Assembly (NCBI GenBank): GCA_021604505.1
Contig: BQJC01000004.1
Coordinates: forward strand, 304,581-368,580
Reading direction: 5' to 3'
DNA from: Nitrospinaceae bacterium
GTDB taxonomy: Bacteria > Nitrospinota > Nitrospinia > Nitrospinales > VA-1
DNA: 64,000 nt
The notes under the pieces are model-generated. The model searched no databases, was not told where the DNA came from, and saw nothing but the letters and a program-made list of their open reading frames with translations. Positions within the stretch are counted from its first letter, which is position 1; every line of letters begins with the position of its first letter. Position numbers and translations under genes: made by a program. Positions 19,390 to 20,888 of the stretch are shown one piece after another.

Positions 19390-20022
19390 ATGTCATTTAT
19401 TTACATGAAAATCCTCGAGTCCCGTCCTGAGCGATATGATTTAGGGATGGGTCTGTTGACTCTGGGATCGTTGACAAAAATTAAACGTCAAATTGCTGAC
19501 CATACACTTCCCGAAAACCGAGTCCTCGATTTGGGCTGCGGGACCGGGACCTTGGCGCAAATGTGCATTGAACGAGGGGCATGGGTGACAGGGGTTGATG
19601 CCAACAGCGGCATGCTTGAAGTGGCAAAGAGAAATTCTCCTTCCGCGAATTTTCTTAACATCAGCCTCAGCAATCTTGATGACCATTTGGAAGATGAATC
19701 TTTCGATATCATTTTAAGCACGCTTGCATTTAGTGAACTGACCCGCGCAGAAAGACTTCATGTATTAAAACAAATCAAAAGAATTTTGAAAAGCGGAGGA
19801 AAAGTTATTATCGGTGACGAAATCATTCCGGAAAATTTATTAGCCCGGTGCTTTTACTATGCCTTCAGATTACCCATGCAGCTTATTACGTGGATAATGA
19901 CCCAGAATACCACCAACGCGATTTCCAATTTTGAAGATGATGTGCGGCAGTCGGGCATGGAAATCGTCAACCGCAAGCCGTTTATGATGGGCATGTTTAT
20001 CCTTCTGGAAATAAAAAAATGA
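19390..20022 (+). CDS. Class I SAM-dependent methyltransferase
   Basis: SAM motif I VLDLGCGTGTLA, motif II-like FDIILS and motif III-like LKSGGKVIIGD are present. The start is ambiguous (TTG 19375, ATG 19390 or ATG 19405). The stop overlaps the next start as ATGA. Confidence 0.8.
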   Translation: MSFIYMKILESRPERYDLGMGLLTLGSLTKIKRQIADHTLPENRVLDLGCGTGTLAQMCIERGAWVTGVDANSGMLEVAKRNSPSANFLNISLSNLDDHLEDESFDIILSTLAFSELTRAERLHVLKQIKRILKSGGKVIIGDEIIPENLLARCFYYAFRLPMQLITWIMTQNTTNAISNFEDDVRQSGMEIVNRKPFMMGMFILLEIKK

Positions 20023-20888
20023 TCGGTTGGATTAAAGATATCTATCAAACGCTGTTTCGGTTTGCCCGGTTTCCGTGTGAACCCGAAACAATTGCCATTG
20101 GTAATCCCGACAAATCCTCTCCTGTCCTCGTCACATGCAATTTTGATTACACGGTCAGACATCTAAAGAATTATTTGGAAAAAGAGCAAATAGATTGCTT
20201 TCTTTTGGTGGTCAATACCAAAGGCACCAACGTCTGGTGCGCGGCGGCTGAAGGTATTTTTACCACCGAAACGGTCCTGGCCCATTTAAAGGTCTATAAT
20301 GTAAGGGAGTTGGTTGATCACACGCGTTTGATACTTCCGCAATTGTCTGTGGCCGGGGTGAAAAGAAAGGACCTCAAAGAACATGGCTGGGAAGGAATTT
20401 ACGGTCCCGTTTACTTTACCGATTTAAAGGAATTTATAAATAACCGTTTTACTAAAACCAGGGACATGCAGGCTTTAGAATATGGCTATTGGGAGCGTTT
20501 TAAAATGGGTCTCAGCCATGCGGTTTTCTGCACGTTGGTCTGTATCCTTCCAATTTTTCTTTTTGCTTCTGATTGGTGGCTTCAGGCCATCATTTTAGTC
20601 TGGTACTTTGCTTTCAGCATGCAATTGATTGAACATTTCATTCCCATTGATAGATTACTGTATAAAGGGCTGATCCTCACTCTGCCGATCCTGGCACTGG
20701 TATTGTCTTATTCAAACCAGCTCGTTGTAAATATCCAGGCATCGGTCGGGATCATTGCCCTGGGTGCTTATATTGGATTCGATGCCCAAGGTCATTCGCA
20801 TCTCGGACAAAACCAGCATTCAGGGAAATTGACTGCCGGGATTTTTGCATTTTTGGCTTTATTTTATGGAGGTTCCTTGTTGCTATGA
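20019..20888 (+). CDS. HgcA-like corrinoid-binding membrane protein
   Basis: 289 aa. The soluble N-half carries PVLVTCNF, the cap-helix-like NTKGTNVWCAAAEG (Cys codon at 20238-20240), RLILPQLSVAGV and YGPV. The C-half has about 5 hydrophobic helices. This is the HgcA architecture. Confidence 0.8.
   Translation: MIGWIKDIYQTLFRFARFPCEPETIAIGNPDKSSPVLVTCNFDYTVRHLKNYLEKEQIDCFLLVVNTKGTNVWCAAAEGIFTTETVLAHLKVYNVRELVDHTRLILPQLSVAGVKRKDLKEHGWEGIYGPVYFTDLKEFINNRFTKTRDMQALEYGYWERFKMGLSHAVFCTLVCILPIFLFASDWWLQAIILVWYFAFSMQLIEHFIPIDRLLYKGLILTLPILALVLSYSNQLVVNIQASVGIIALGAYIGFDAQGHSHLGQNQHSGKLTAGIFAFLALFYGGSLLL

Follow-up and report, generated by a model that had tools for sequence, protein, structure and literature searches.

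An HgcA-like corrinoid protein of a Nitrospinaceae bacterium, its methyltransferase partner CpaM and a putatively metal-responsive operon

Organization of the locus

The stretch of DNA analyzed here (hereafter, the window) spans 64 kb of a Nitrospinaceae contig and contains a 289-codon open reading frame for an HgcA-like corrinoid protein, 100% identical to GJL80035.1 (NPINA01_30240) of the Nitrospinaceae MAG NPINA01. The gene lies in an operon with the order DUF169, thioredoxin-like, CpaM, HgcA-like, s62, YHS, which is transcribed divergently from a gene for a MerR-family regulator. The features are as follows.

17819..18232, minus strand: MerR-family metal-sensing regulator, 137 aa, with C84, C119 and C127 (Pfam MerR, MerR_1 and MerR-DNA-bind)
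18241..18271, plus strand: candidate MerR-type promoter/operator, read directly from the sequence
18241-18246, plus strand: -35 element TTGAAC
18245-18263, plus strand: perfect dyad ACCTGTAG-ttg-CTACAGGT
18266-18271, plus strand: candidate -10 element TACATT, separated from the -35 element by a 19-nt spacer
18297..18269, minus strand: divergent promoter-like site TTTCCA-17-TATAAT, overlapping the MerR-type operator
18323..19033, plus strand: DUF169 protein, 236 aa, accessory, the first gene of the operon (Pfam PF02596, E=6.9e-24)
19092..19361, plus strand: small thioredoxin/glutaredoxin-like protein, 89 aa, two CxxC, accessory (Pfam Thioredoxin_3, Glutaredoxin)
19390..20022, plus strand: CpaM, corrinoid protein-associated class I SAM methyltransferase, 210 aa (NCBIfam NF043040)
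20019..20888, plus strand: HgcA-like corrinoid protein, 289 aa, about 5 transmembrane (TM) helices
20229..20255, plus strand: cap-helix motif NVWCAAAEG, residues 71-79, codons AAC GTC TGG TGC GCG GCG GCT GAA GGT
20781..20822, plus strand: clade-specific loop D255-A-Q-G-H-S-H-L-G-Q-N-Q-H-S268 between TM4 and TM5 (alignment A1)
20885..21073, plus strand: s62, a 62-aa Cys-rich CxC protein
21045..21491, plus strand: YHS/TRASH-type Cys-rich metal-binding protein, 148 aa, the last gene of the operon (Pfam YHS PF04945, E=1.1e-13)
21580-22995, minus strand: HtrA-like gene, the next after YHS, on the opposite strand

Although the mechanically delimited CpaM frame begins with TTG at 19375, translation probably starts from ATG 19390; the resulting 210 aa equal the length of the gene called in a related locus (L002), and the TTG-start version is absent from the protein collection. 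The stop codon of CpaM overlaps the start of the HgcA-like gene (ATGA at 20019-20022) and, to judge from the sequence, the two genes are translationally coupled; likewise, the start of s62 overlaps the stop of the HgcA-like gene (ATGA at 20885-20888). The YHS gene starts with TTG 21045 or, alternatively, with ATG 21063.

Architecture and conservation of the HgcA-like protein

The original prediction identified the protein from the motif NVWCAAAEG and the flanking blocks PVLVTCNF, LLVVNTKGT, RLILPQLSVAGV and IYGPVYFTDL, which were likened to the HgcA corrinoid domain, followed by a polytopic C-terminal half. Translation bore out the motif and its position; the four blocks are present, inside the corrinoid-domain match, and the AlphaFold2 model (pLDDT 88.9) together with hydropathy reveals about five TM helices (157-182, 184-203, 213-231, 235-258 and 269-288), a C-terminal domain that is a feature of HgcA. 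Homology with HgcA was supported by matches to Pfam CdhD (PF03599, residues 17-130, E=1.6e-16), to NCBIfam HgcA_corrinoid (E=8.4e-40) and to HgcAB_like (see below). [quoted passage not shown]

As originally noted, the protein keeps the cap-helix Cys and the NVWCAA core, whereas Ala77-Glu78 occupy the place of the Gly-Lys of true HgcA. Cys74, within NVWC, is presumed to be the lower axial ligand of Co; its column shows no variation in alignments A1 and A2, and we take the residue to correspond to Cys93 of the ND132 HgcA. Residues 71-80 form the single low-confidence stretch of the model (pLDDT 57, no helix), in which the direction of Glu78 is unreadable, probably because the cofactor is absent from the model. 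The His-rich loop D255-S268, kept in all ten members of the 289-aa clade in alignment A1, is placed by the predicted topology on the cytoplasmic side of the membrane, that of the corrinoid domain, and might be a metal-binding site.

There are 53 further clusters of homologues, 56-88% identical to the protein of the window and mostly 289 aa long; the sequences from Nitrospina, Ca. Nitromaritima and LS_NOB are 81-88% identical to it. Every one of the seven clade loci that were read has the motif Glu, as do 53 of 54 close homologues (in the 54th, the motif is not recognisable), and the codons around the motif vary synonymously across the clade while the motif itself is kept. Hence, Ala-Glu is no sequencing accident, and the motif appears to be under selection. 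A literal text search of the full-text literature for 'NVWCAAAE' gave no match, the motif probably appearing there in figures only, and a search for K97/G96 of HgcA returned nothing relevant.

A sister lineage of HgcA

The profile searches placed the protein apart from the canonical family. It scores 136.9 bits against HgcA (NF040863), below the curated equivalog cutoff of 275; the best profile is HgcAB_like (NF043039; 232 bits, E=1.4e-68, short of the family cutoff of 285), in which residues 5-231 align with positions 1-228 of 350. The CFeSP large subunit profile (NF003195) yields 80 bits, compared to a cutoff of 306, and only its C-terminal domain is matched (positions 325-447 of 450), so an assignment to CFeSP and the Wood-Ljungdahl pathway was dropped; no acs or cdh genes were found among the annotated open reading frames of the window.

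In the neighbor-joining tree (motif columns removed, 200 bootstraps), a split between the HgcA with Lys at motif position 8, together with a Treponema sequence (L042), and all the rest was recovered in 189 of 200 bootstraps, with the protein of the window among the rest, on the "HgcAB-like" side; this split is the deepest in the family tree. The Nitrospina-type clade is monophyletic in 193 of 200 bootstraps, and its placement by Lin 2023 (PMC10083202) agrees with our tree. The residue at position 8 follows the genomic context: Lys is found in 57 of the 58 hgcB-linked hgcA loci and is missing from 65/65 ferredoxin- or methyltransferase-fused representatives, whereas the Nitrospina-type clade invariably has Glu there (in this motif census, one locus, L011, was mis-registered because the regular expression matched another frame, and another, L013, was left out). 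The Treponema protein, with an adjacent hgcB and a score of 452 bits against the cutoff of 275, nevertheless reads Gly-Glu-Gly, which indicates that a Lys-to-Glu replacement occurs inside the true HgcA family. The NVWCAAAE sequence does not match the high-stringency Hg-MATE motif N[VI]WC[AS][AGS]GK. The original prediction would have lost its novelty had the Ala-Glu variant been common among proven methylators; the Hg-MATE protocol lists six cap-helix motifs from methylators confirmed by experiment, all with GK at the end, and the variant matches none of them (PMC10087281).

The ferredoxin partner is missing as well. The absence of hgcB next to Nitrospina HgcA-like genes has been reported (PMC10083202), and hgcB is described as indispensable in the passages of PMC7347909 and PMC10083202 that cite Parks 2013. 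A six-frame scan for CX2CX2CX3C detected no hgcB in the window and no such motif within the HgcA-like frame, and there is no hgcB downstream in the 6 related Nitrospina-type loci. The only two-motif frame in the window (11379-12323) is 8 kb away and encodes the Fe-S subunit of succinate dehydrogenase/fumarate reductase. In the alignment, the fifth TM helix of the protein stands where the relatives carry a 2x[4Fe-4S] domain. In the Parks 2013 scheme, methyl transfer as a carbanion from a Cys-on corrinoid to an electrophilic metal reportedly requires two electrons per turnover; this demand, set against a protein that has no linked reductant, counts against the explanation we favor below.

By profile and by tree, then, the protein is outside canonical HgcA and is a member of the sister lineage named "HgcAB-like" by NCBI, within which it is the ferredoxin-less form. 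Its length of about 289 aa, the NVWCAA(A/V)E motif, the lack of a ferredoxin domain and the Nitrospinota origin, along with a neighborhood of CpaM/UbiE and YHS (plus MerR and DUF169), are those of the Nitrospina-type group. It is, accordingly, the already described Nitrospina "HgcA-like" protein and not a new one, so that the novelty implied by the original prediction does not hold: the cap-helix substitutions, the absence of hgcB and the neighborhood of this group have been in print since 2015-16, Podar 2015 (PMC4646819) having described hgcA-like sequences from the mesopelagic that combine a TM domain and the absence of hgcB with "distinct amino acid substitutions" in the cap helix, and Villar 2019 having drawn the MerR/UbiE/DUF169/YHS context around the Nitrospina gene. 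Of the two possibilities originally offered, a divergent functional HgcA or a paralogue, the paralogue fits better, given the position outside the true-HgcA clade, the score below the cutoff, the lack of hgcB and the CpaM-associated lineage.

CpaM, the constant partner

The CpaM of the window scores 252 bits on NF043040 (cutoff 180). A CpaM homologue is present in 23/23 parsed loci without Lys at position 8, from many phyla, mostly immediately upstream of the HgcA-like gene or fused to it, compared to none adjacent in the 58 hgcB-linked hgcA loci. Fusions of CpaM to the HgcA-like domain were found in L016, L027, P0144 and P0129 and are of two types, CpaM-HgcA-like and CpaM-HgcA-HgcB-like; an apparent fusion in L021 seems to be an artefact of the reading frame and was excluded. 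Such strict co-occurrence and fusion speak for CpaM as part of the machine. In a Pfam census of 139 neighbor frames from 15 loci of the CpaM-linked clade, CpaM was the sole neighbor family in common besides the corrinoid/ferredoxin protein, whereas ABC-2 exporters (about 5 matches) and ArsR (3) were sporadic; therefore, the link to metals rests mainly on the Nitrospina-type loci. The sporadic occurrence of metal-related neighbors among the ferredoxin-fused relatives (ArsR in 3/15 loci) is another observation that counts against our preferred explanation.

The nearest named relatives of CpaM are quinone methyltransferases of the UbiE/MenG type (63 bits), and its PDB matches are generic class I methyltransferases including UbiG-type proteins; no metal-binding Cys pattern was detected in CpaM, and a literature search on "CpaM" returned nothing relevant. 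We know of no class I SAM methyltransferase that acts on a protein-bound corrinoid.

The regulator and other metal-related genes

The best NCBIfam model for the MerR-family protein is TIGR02051 (120 bits, cutoff 150.85), and the protein falls below every NCBIfam equivalog cutoff. Its closest solved relative is the Hg(II)-MerR of Bacillus megaterium (4ua1, E=5e-31), with all three Hg-ligand Cys aligned, followed by CadR, a PbrR-like protein, Tn501 MerR and CueR. A 19-nt spacer with an internal dyad is a hallmark of promoters activated by MerR-family proteins, and the site at 18241..18271 may function as such a promoter/operator, in which case the operon would be metal-inducible. A scan for consensus promoters and terminators gave counts at chance level, with a spacer range that misses the 19-nt MerR-type promoter.

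The s62 gene is directly downstream of the HgcA-like gene in 7/7 Nitrospina-type loci; the protein has an invariant E-(A/T)-C-E-C-T-R-S-K and, in 6/7 loci, a C-terminal Cys-Cys pair, and its homologues form 84 clusters, all short and devoid of Pfam domains. A YHS homologue is present in 7/7 of these loci and a MerR-family gene in most of the seven. The DUF169 gene, for which no solved relative was found, is present in 4/6 related Nitrospina-type loci, and the thioredoxin-like gene, with Thioredoxin_3 and Glutaredoxin matches barely over the cutoffs, is confined to the window, L006 and L007 among the loci compared. Outside this group, ArsR and the copper-storage protein Csp adjoin a fused relative from an unrelated phylum.

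Proposed function and alternatives

The identity, fold and clade placement of the protein, the conserved linkage and fusions with CpaM and the architecture of the operator are direct observations, and they suggest to us a direction of methyl flow, SAM as the donor and a thiophilic acceptor. CpaM would methylate the corrinoid at its Cys-ligated cobalt, with SAM as the methyl source; the membrane-embedded HgcA-like protein would then hand the methyl to a thiophilic metal or metalloid, possibly presented by s62, the YHS protein or the His-rich loop, with Hg(II) as one candidate acceptor. CpaM could, however, act on another substrate instead. On balance, we lean towards this explanation as a whole, namely, a metal-inducible, membrane-anchored, CpaM-loaded corrinoid methyl carrier from a sister lineage of HgcA.

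It is doubtful, but deserves weighing, that the protein is a fully functional mercury methylase like canonical HgcA, which would receive its methyl from folate and its electrons from an unlinked ferredoxin, with CpaM irrelevant; Nitrospina would then be a real oceanic source of methylmercury. The retained Cys and NVWCAA core, the TM domain, the resemblance of the regulator to Hg(II)-MerR and the Glu at position 8 of the hgcB-linked Treponema HgcA are all compatible with such an activity; furthermore, the abundance of Nitrospina hgcA-like genes correlates with mesopelagic MeHg and the gene is expressed (PMC7347909, PMC12874090), and none of the substitutions was predicted to abolish methylation by Podar 2015 (PMC4646819). 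Set against these are the 137 bits versus the HgcA cutoff of 275, a motif off the high-stringency list, the position across the deepest split of the family, the absence from the window and six related neighborhoods of an hgcB described as indispensable in the passages mentioned above, the strict co-occurrence and fusion with CpaM, and the cultures of P. furiosus and M. methylutens, the organisms tested from the sister clade, in which no MeHg was formed (PMC4646819, PMC10087281). [quoted passage not shown]

A bolder explanation, which we consider rather unlikely, is that CpaM, the HgcA-like protein and the CxC protein constitute a metal-methylating module that is driven by SAM, independent of ferredoxin and inducible by Hg(II), distinct from HgcAB and workable in a microaerophilic or aerobic nitrite oxidiser. 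Were this true, the Lys-to-Glu replacement would mark a switch of donor or partner and not a loss of function and, with Hg(II) as the acceptor, the module would be the long-sought biological source of MeHg in the oxic subsurface ocean.

That the pair of CpaM and the HgcA-like protein modifies a non-metal substrate (a membrane quinone, a lipid or a small metabolite), the metal-type regulator and metal-binding neighbors being lineage-specific additions with no part in the chemistry, seems to us distinctly unlikely. The kinship of CpaM with UbiE/MenG-type and UbiG-type enzymes, the membrane location of the HgcA-like protein and the universal linkage of CpaM alone, not of the metal genes, are in line with such a role, but the Cys-on cap helix, thought to favor methyl transfer to a metal (PMC7305189), is kept, YHS and CxC proteins are encoded in all seven Nitrospina-type loci and MerR-family regulators in most, and the ArsR and Csp genes extend the association to an unrelated phylum. 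Finally, the notion of a decaying, non-functional remnant of a fused hgcAB-like gene minus its ferredoxin domain, prompted by the end of the protein about where that domain begins in the relatives and by the poorly modelled cap-helix segment, is hardly credible and was rejected on account of strong conservation: an intact 289-aa frame across dozens of clusters with identities as low as 56%, a motif retained through synonymous change, a conserved C-terminal TM helix and His-rich loop, translational coupling conserved on both sides, and reported transcripts (PMC12874090).

Implications

Whether Nitrospina produces methylmercury is among the most debated questions of the marine mercury cycle: in the open ocean, no other hgcA homologue is as abundant as its hgcA-like gene, with Hg methylation only putative. 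As a representative of a sister lineage the tested members of which were negative for Hg methylation in culture, this gene should be kept out of hgcA counts, and Lys versus non-Lys at position 8 offers a simple metagenomic marker that separates hgcB-linked HgcA from CpaM-linked paralogues. What defines the HgcAB-like lineage is that a SAM methyltransferase is its obligate partner, one that activity tests so far may have ignored. To our knowledge, no isolate carrying a Nitrospina hgcA-like gene exists; the source of the exact sequence studied here is a seawater enrichment kept in the laboratory (NPINA01), with which a direct isotope-tracer test may be feasible.

Comparison with known systems

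One of the systems compared is the large subunit of CFeSP (AcsC/CdhE; 2h9a, 2ycl, 4djd), which shares a homologous Rossmann-like domain with 28-32% identity over about 130 residues. CFeSP has a Thr in the cap helix where the Nitrospinaceae protein has Cys and lacks the membrane domain; it also has an N-terminal [4Fe-4S] domain and a TIM barrel, and its partners are MeTr, ACS and a small subunit, all of which are missing here. At the positions of Ala-Glu, it reads A-A in C. hydrogenoformans and A-D in Moorella; the latter indicates that an acidic residue at position 8 is compatible with corrinoid binding, and the "charge reversal next to the cofactor" of the original prediction was thus an overstatement. 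HgcA of the P. mercurii ND132 type has the CFeSP-like corrinoid domain, N-V-W-C-A-A, the essential Cys and about 5 TM helices in common with the protein, but it has Gly-Lys, an adjacent hgcB and no CpaM, as opposed to Ala-Glu, no hgcB and linkage to CpaM.

The fused HgcAB-like proteins of the Pyrococcus furiosus type (NF043039; Podar 2015) have the corrinoid domain and the first four TM helices in common with the Nitrospinaceae protein; both lack Lys at position 8, have CpaM upstream and fall on the same side of the tree. They differ at position 8 itself (Gly in the fused proteins, Glu here) and at the C-terminus, where the 2x[4Fe-4S] domain and the Cys-rich tail are replaced by the fifth TM helix, and the "MPxWSPLWR" segment, which in the fused proteins is followed by the ferredoxin domain, is replaced by the His-rich loop; the dedicated small CxC and YHS partners are likewise on the side of the Nitrospinaceae protein.

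The closest counterparts are the Nitrospina "HgcA-like" proteins (Gionfriddo 2016; Villar 2019/2020; Tada 2020, 2021, 2026; Kop 2024), of which this protein is one; the length of 289 aa, the lack of hgcB and the MerR/UbiE(=CpaM)/DUF169/YHS neighborhood are all shared. Compared to the other loci of the group, the window has an extra thioredoxin-like gene between DUF169 and CpaM, which is also seen in L006 and L007, and the organism originates from a bioreactor enrichment of seawater and not from an open-ocean metagenome; otherwise, the protein is without substantive difference from the Nitrospina HgcA-like group.

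Affinity and fold of the HgcA-like protein

The genes at the center of this analysis are:

17819–18232, minus strand: merR, divergent from the operon
19390 (likely ATG start) to a stop codon overlapping the start codon of the HgcA-like ORF (ATGA), directly upstream of the latter: cpaM, corrinoid protein-associated SAM methyltransferase (NF043040)
20019–20888, plus strand: HgcA-like ORF, open for 289 codons
20885–21073, plus strand: 62-aa ORF, small CxC protein

The product of the HgcA-like ORF is a membrane-bound corrinoid protein that carries the HgcA-type cysteine. Nucleotides 20229–20255 (AAC GTC TGG TGC GCG GCG GCT GAA GGT) read N-V-W-C-A-A-A-E-G at residues 71–79, as originally predicted, and the other sequence blocks quoted in that prediction were found in the protein as well. 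The proposed homology to HgcA is statistically solid, with matches to Pfam CdhD (PF03599; E = 1.6e-16, residues 17–130), to the NCBIfam profiles HgcA_corrinoid (E = 8.4e-40) and HgcAB_like (E = 1.4e-68) and, by sequence, to the solved large subunits of CFeSP, the corrinoid protein of the Wood-Ljungdahl pathway (2h9a, E = 1e-13; 4c1n; 4djd). The AlphaFold2 model (74 homologues as input) is confident (mean pLDDT 88.9, pTM 0.77) and consists of a Rossmann-like domain followed by helices 157–182, 184–203, 213–231, 235–258, and 269–288, which match the hydrophobic segments in the hydropathy profile and bear out the anticipated polytopic C-terminal half. The best match of this model in a fold search was the integrative HgcAB model 9a0b (E = 1.3e-10), followed by CFeSP corrinoid domains; no experimental HgcA structure was found by sequence and fold searches of the PDB.

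This protein cannot be counted as a canonical HgcA. Against the HgcA equivalog model it reaches 137 bits (cutoff 275), and against HgcAB_like 232 bits (cutoff 285), where only the first 228 of the 350 model positions are matched. The alignment accounts for this partial match: the 289-aa proteins correspond to the ferredoxin-fused ones over the corrinoid domain and four transmembrane helices, and have one further transmembrane helix in place of the 2x[4Fe-4S] domain. No HgcB-like ferredoxin was detected in the 64-kb window or downstream at six related loci. The loop D-A-Q-G-H-S-H-L-G-Q-N-Q-H-S (residues 255–268), specific to the ferredoxin-less clade, is predicted by the model to lie on the corrinoid-domain side of the membrane, where the ferredoxin domain of the relatives starts. 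In a neighbor-joining tree of 61 sequences, constructed with the nine motif columns left out, the Nitrospina-type clade was monophyletic in 193 of the 200 bootstrap replicates, and true HgcA was split from all others, including the protein analyzed here, in 189. Confidence in the identity and clade assignment is high.

Position 8 of the cap-helix motif

The eighth residue of the cap-helix motif was compared across three samples. Among the best 120 homologues, 53 have Glu here, with the motif NVWCAA(A/V/S)E. The ferredoxin-less clade has 54 members and accounts for all 53; its remaining member is a 192-aa fragment with no recognizable motif. The ferredoxin-fused proteins have Gly (Ala in the Gly-Ala-Gly forms), and none of the 120 has Lys. 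Among 80 species-representative genome loci, 58 contain a downstream dicluster ferredoxin gene (hgcB), and 57 of these 58 encode NVWCA(A)(G/A)K. The sole exception, a Treponema sp. MAG (L042:5839-6876) with NVWCAAGEGTF and an adjacent hgcB, scores as a genuine HgcA against the profile (452 bits, cutoff 275), so that the Lys-to-Glu replacement also occurs inside the true HgcA family. The same motif is present in a Deltaproteobacteria MAG (L084), where the ORF enters masked sequence. Among 150 diverse representatives from a library of 1.84 billion proteins, Lys was found in 46 stand-alone proteins but in none of the 47 ferredoxin-fused and none of the 18 methyltransferase-fused proteins; Glu was found in eight, three of them methyltransferase fusions. 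Taken together, the three samples indicate that Lys-8 marks hgcB-linked HgcA.

A non-Lys residue at position 8 is common to the whole sister lineage. In the Nitrospina-type sub-clade, Glu is fixed and, judging from the codons, kept by purifying selection; six loci use GAA and one uses GAG, and the flanking codons drift synonymously. The originally noted replacement of Gly-Lys by Ala-Glu is thus real, but for the cofactor it is less radical than suggested, given that the aligned pair in solved CFeSPs is Ala-Ala (C. hydrogenoformans) or Ala-Asp (Moorella). In the published HgcAB model, Gly96 touches Arg58 of HgcB (PMC7305189); under one reading, Gly-Lys could be part of the HgcB interface that was freed to vary once the partner changed.

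Partnership with CpaM

Genetically, the HgcA-like proteins have a class I SAM methyltransferase as their obligate partner. The upstream ORF scores 252 bits against NF043040 (cutoff 180), and a CpaM homologue is encoded in all 23 parsed non-Lys loci (Nitrospinota, Chloroflexota, Planctomycetota, Bathyarchaeota, Acidobacteriota, and others), immediately upstream in most, but is adjacent in none of the 58 hgcB-linked loci. CpaM is fused to the N-terminus of the HgcA-like domain in Poribacteria (L016:5263-6846), Anaerolineales (L027:685-2295) and the metagenomic protein P0144, and in the metagenomic P0129 the fusion is triple (CpaM-HgcA-HgcB-like); the CpaM cutoff is exceeded by each of these four, and such fusions comprise 18 of the 150 diverse representatives. 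In a Pfam census of 139 neighboring ORFs at 15 CpaM-linked loci, only the methyltransferase and the corrinoid/ferredoxin protein were common. Adjacency, translational coupling and repeated fusion argue strongly for a joint function of the two proteins. We found nothing in the literature on this partnership beyond the 'ubiE' label of Villar 2019; the names of the NCBIfam models make clear that curators had already noticed the association.

Across the 15 CpaM-linked loci (L003-L057), ABC-2-type exporter permeases (5 matches) and ABC ATPases (4) recur close to the fused HgcAB-like genes; they may export a product but are not universal. Two Isosphaeraceae loci (L003 and L004, ~4080–8265) encode an ArsR-type regulator, two small ORFs, CpaM, a fused HgcAB-like protein, a second methyltransferase and a Csp copper-storage protein, with DUF932, an integrase and PIN/antitoxin pairs downstream, which suggests a mobile island.

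Operon, regulator, and small proteins

Following merR, the gene order is DUF169, a thioredoxin-like gene, cpaM, the HgcA-like gene, the 62-aa ORF and a YHS gene, with overlaps or short gaps; the next gene downstream is convergent. The 90-bp merR/DUF169 intergenic region contains a -35 element TTGAAC, a perfect dyad ACCTGTAG-N3-CTACAGGT and then TACATT, 19 nt past TTGAAC; this arrangement is the one typical of the MerR family. The same region is overlapped by a promoter-like site that points the other way, toward merR. Among solved structures, the regulator is closest to the Bacillus megaterium Hg(II) sensor MerR (4ua1, E = 5e-31), with C84, C119, and C127 aligned with the three Hg ligands of 4ua1; next come CadR, a PbrR-like protein and Tn501 MerR, with CueR more distant. 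The regulator falls under every NCBIfam equivalog cutoff, and the assignment therefore stops at a thiophilic divalent metal.

The 62-aa ORF, whose start overlaps the stop codon of the HgcA-like gene, and the YHS protein are each present at all 7 Nitrospina-type loci. In the 62-aa protein, E-(A/T)-C-E-C-T-R-S-K is invariant and a Cys-Cys pair is present in 6 of the 7 loci; a search with this protein retrieved 84 clusters, each of which is short, shares 68% identity or more with the query and lacks any Pfam domain. The most divergent ferredoxin-less members, from GCA_054001715.1 (L001) and 'Nitrospirae bacterium SZUA-77' (L008), are 58–61% identical, with the motif NVWCAAVEG. Both loci retain CpaM, the small CxC protein (lacking the C-terminal Cys-Cys pair in L008) and YHS, without DUF169, which delineates a four-gene core; MerR had no match in the fetched region of L001 and only a 38%-identical one in L008.

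Other genes in the window

Tandem genes for HtrA/DegP-like serine proteases (21580–22995 and 23094–24611, both minus strand), assigned by eye from trypsin-like and PDZ-like sequence, are convergent with the operon end. At 50171–52354 (plus strand), one 727-aa ORF unites a receiver of the response-regulator type and a sigma-54-type AAA+ domain, including its lid, with an entire LpxC (lipid A deacetylase); a DNA-binding domain was not detected. The same domains occur in more than 120 protein clusters from Nitrospinaceae/Nitrospinota (~725–750 aa, 62–100% identity); this is, therefore, a conserved lineage-wide fusion, suggesting direct control of lipid A synthesis by a two-component/AAA+ system. 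A three-gene succinate dehydrogenase/fumarate reductase cluster (10498–14029, minus strand; flavoprotein, Fer2_3/Fer4 iron-sulfur subunit, CCG/HdrB-like subunit) matches the non-classical (type E-like) enzyme reported in Nitrospinota (PMC10839748). A fused hydantoinase A/B (oxoprolinase-like) protein of 1242 aa is encoded at 42647–46375 (minus strand).

Possible mechanism and alternatives

The operon thus combines the corrinoid protein and CpaM with a MerR-type control region and conserved Cys-rich and His-rich elements. Conceivably, CpaM would transfer the methyl group of SAM to reduced cobalt, the methyl-corrinoid would pass it to a soft metal or metalloid bound by the CxC protein, the YHS protein or the His loop, and the product would exit through or along the membrane domain. 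We propose this mechanism tentatively, at somewhat below even chances; the statement as a whole, with identity, clade and mechanism taken together, appears reasonably probable. Hg(II) is an obvious candidate for the methyl acceptor because the regulator resembles Hg(II)-MerR. Three cautions apply. Each turnover of the canonical scheme requires two low-potential electrons, and the ferredoxin has been lost from this protein; the role of CpaM is inferred; and the sister-clade organisms assayed produced no MeHg in culture (PMC4646819, PMC10087281).

A canonical Hg methylase served by an unlinked ferredoxin would fit the Hg(II)-like regulator, and the sub-cutoff HgcA score and the CpaM linkage speak against it; we consider this unlikely. 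A non-metal methylation system would accommodate the SAM methyltransferase and leave the metal-type regulator aside, and is more doubtful still. A decaying relic is scarcely credible for an intact gene with a conserved neighborhood.

Relation to the known Nitrospina family

In the mercury literature, this protein goes under the name 'Nitrospina HgcA-like'. Its sequence matches GJL80035.1 ('hypothetical protein NPINA01_30240 [Nitrospinaceae bacterium]') with 100% identity; the latter is from a 97%-complete MAG, NPINA01 (GCA_021604505.1), recovered from a bioreactor enrichment of seawater in Nagaoka, Japan (PMC10839748 and supplement). A protein search produced 53 further clusters (56–88% identity, mostly 289 aa) from marine metagenomes and genomes of Nitrospina, Ca. 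Nitromaritima and LS_NOB. In Podar 2015, hgcA-like sequences from the mesopelagic were reported to have 'distinct amino acid substitutions' in the cap-helix and a transmembrane domain, and to lack hgcB (PMC4646819); Villar 2019 drew the same neighborhood (MerR1, UbiE, DUF169, YHS) and proposed MerR control; and Lin 2023 grouped Nitrospina-like sequences, all without hgcB, with the fused-hgcAB clade (PMC10083202). According to Tada 2026 and Kop 2024, the methylation capacity of Nitrospina is so far untested because no culture exists. The literal string NVWCAAAE does not occur in the searchable full texts; despite this, the protein and its divergence were already known. The novelty implied by the original prediction does not hold. 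The family has been under discussion for ten years, its divergent cap-helix, lack of hgcB and neighborhood have been published, and GenBank contains the exact sequence: this is one more copy of a known family.

The additions made here are modest but useful. The present copy originates from a laboratory enrichment that may permit a tracer test; the small CxC protein is a conserved candidate subunit; the fusions provide evidence of the CpaM partnership; and Lys-8 is a residue marker that cleanly separates hgcB-linked HgcA from the CpaM-linked paralogues.
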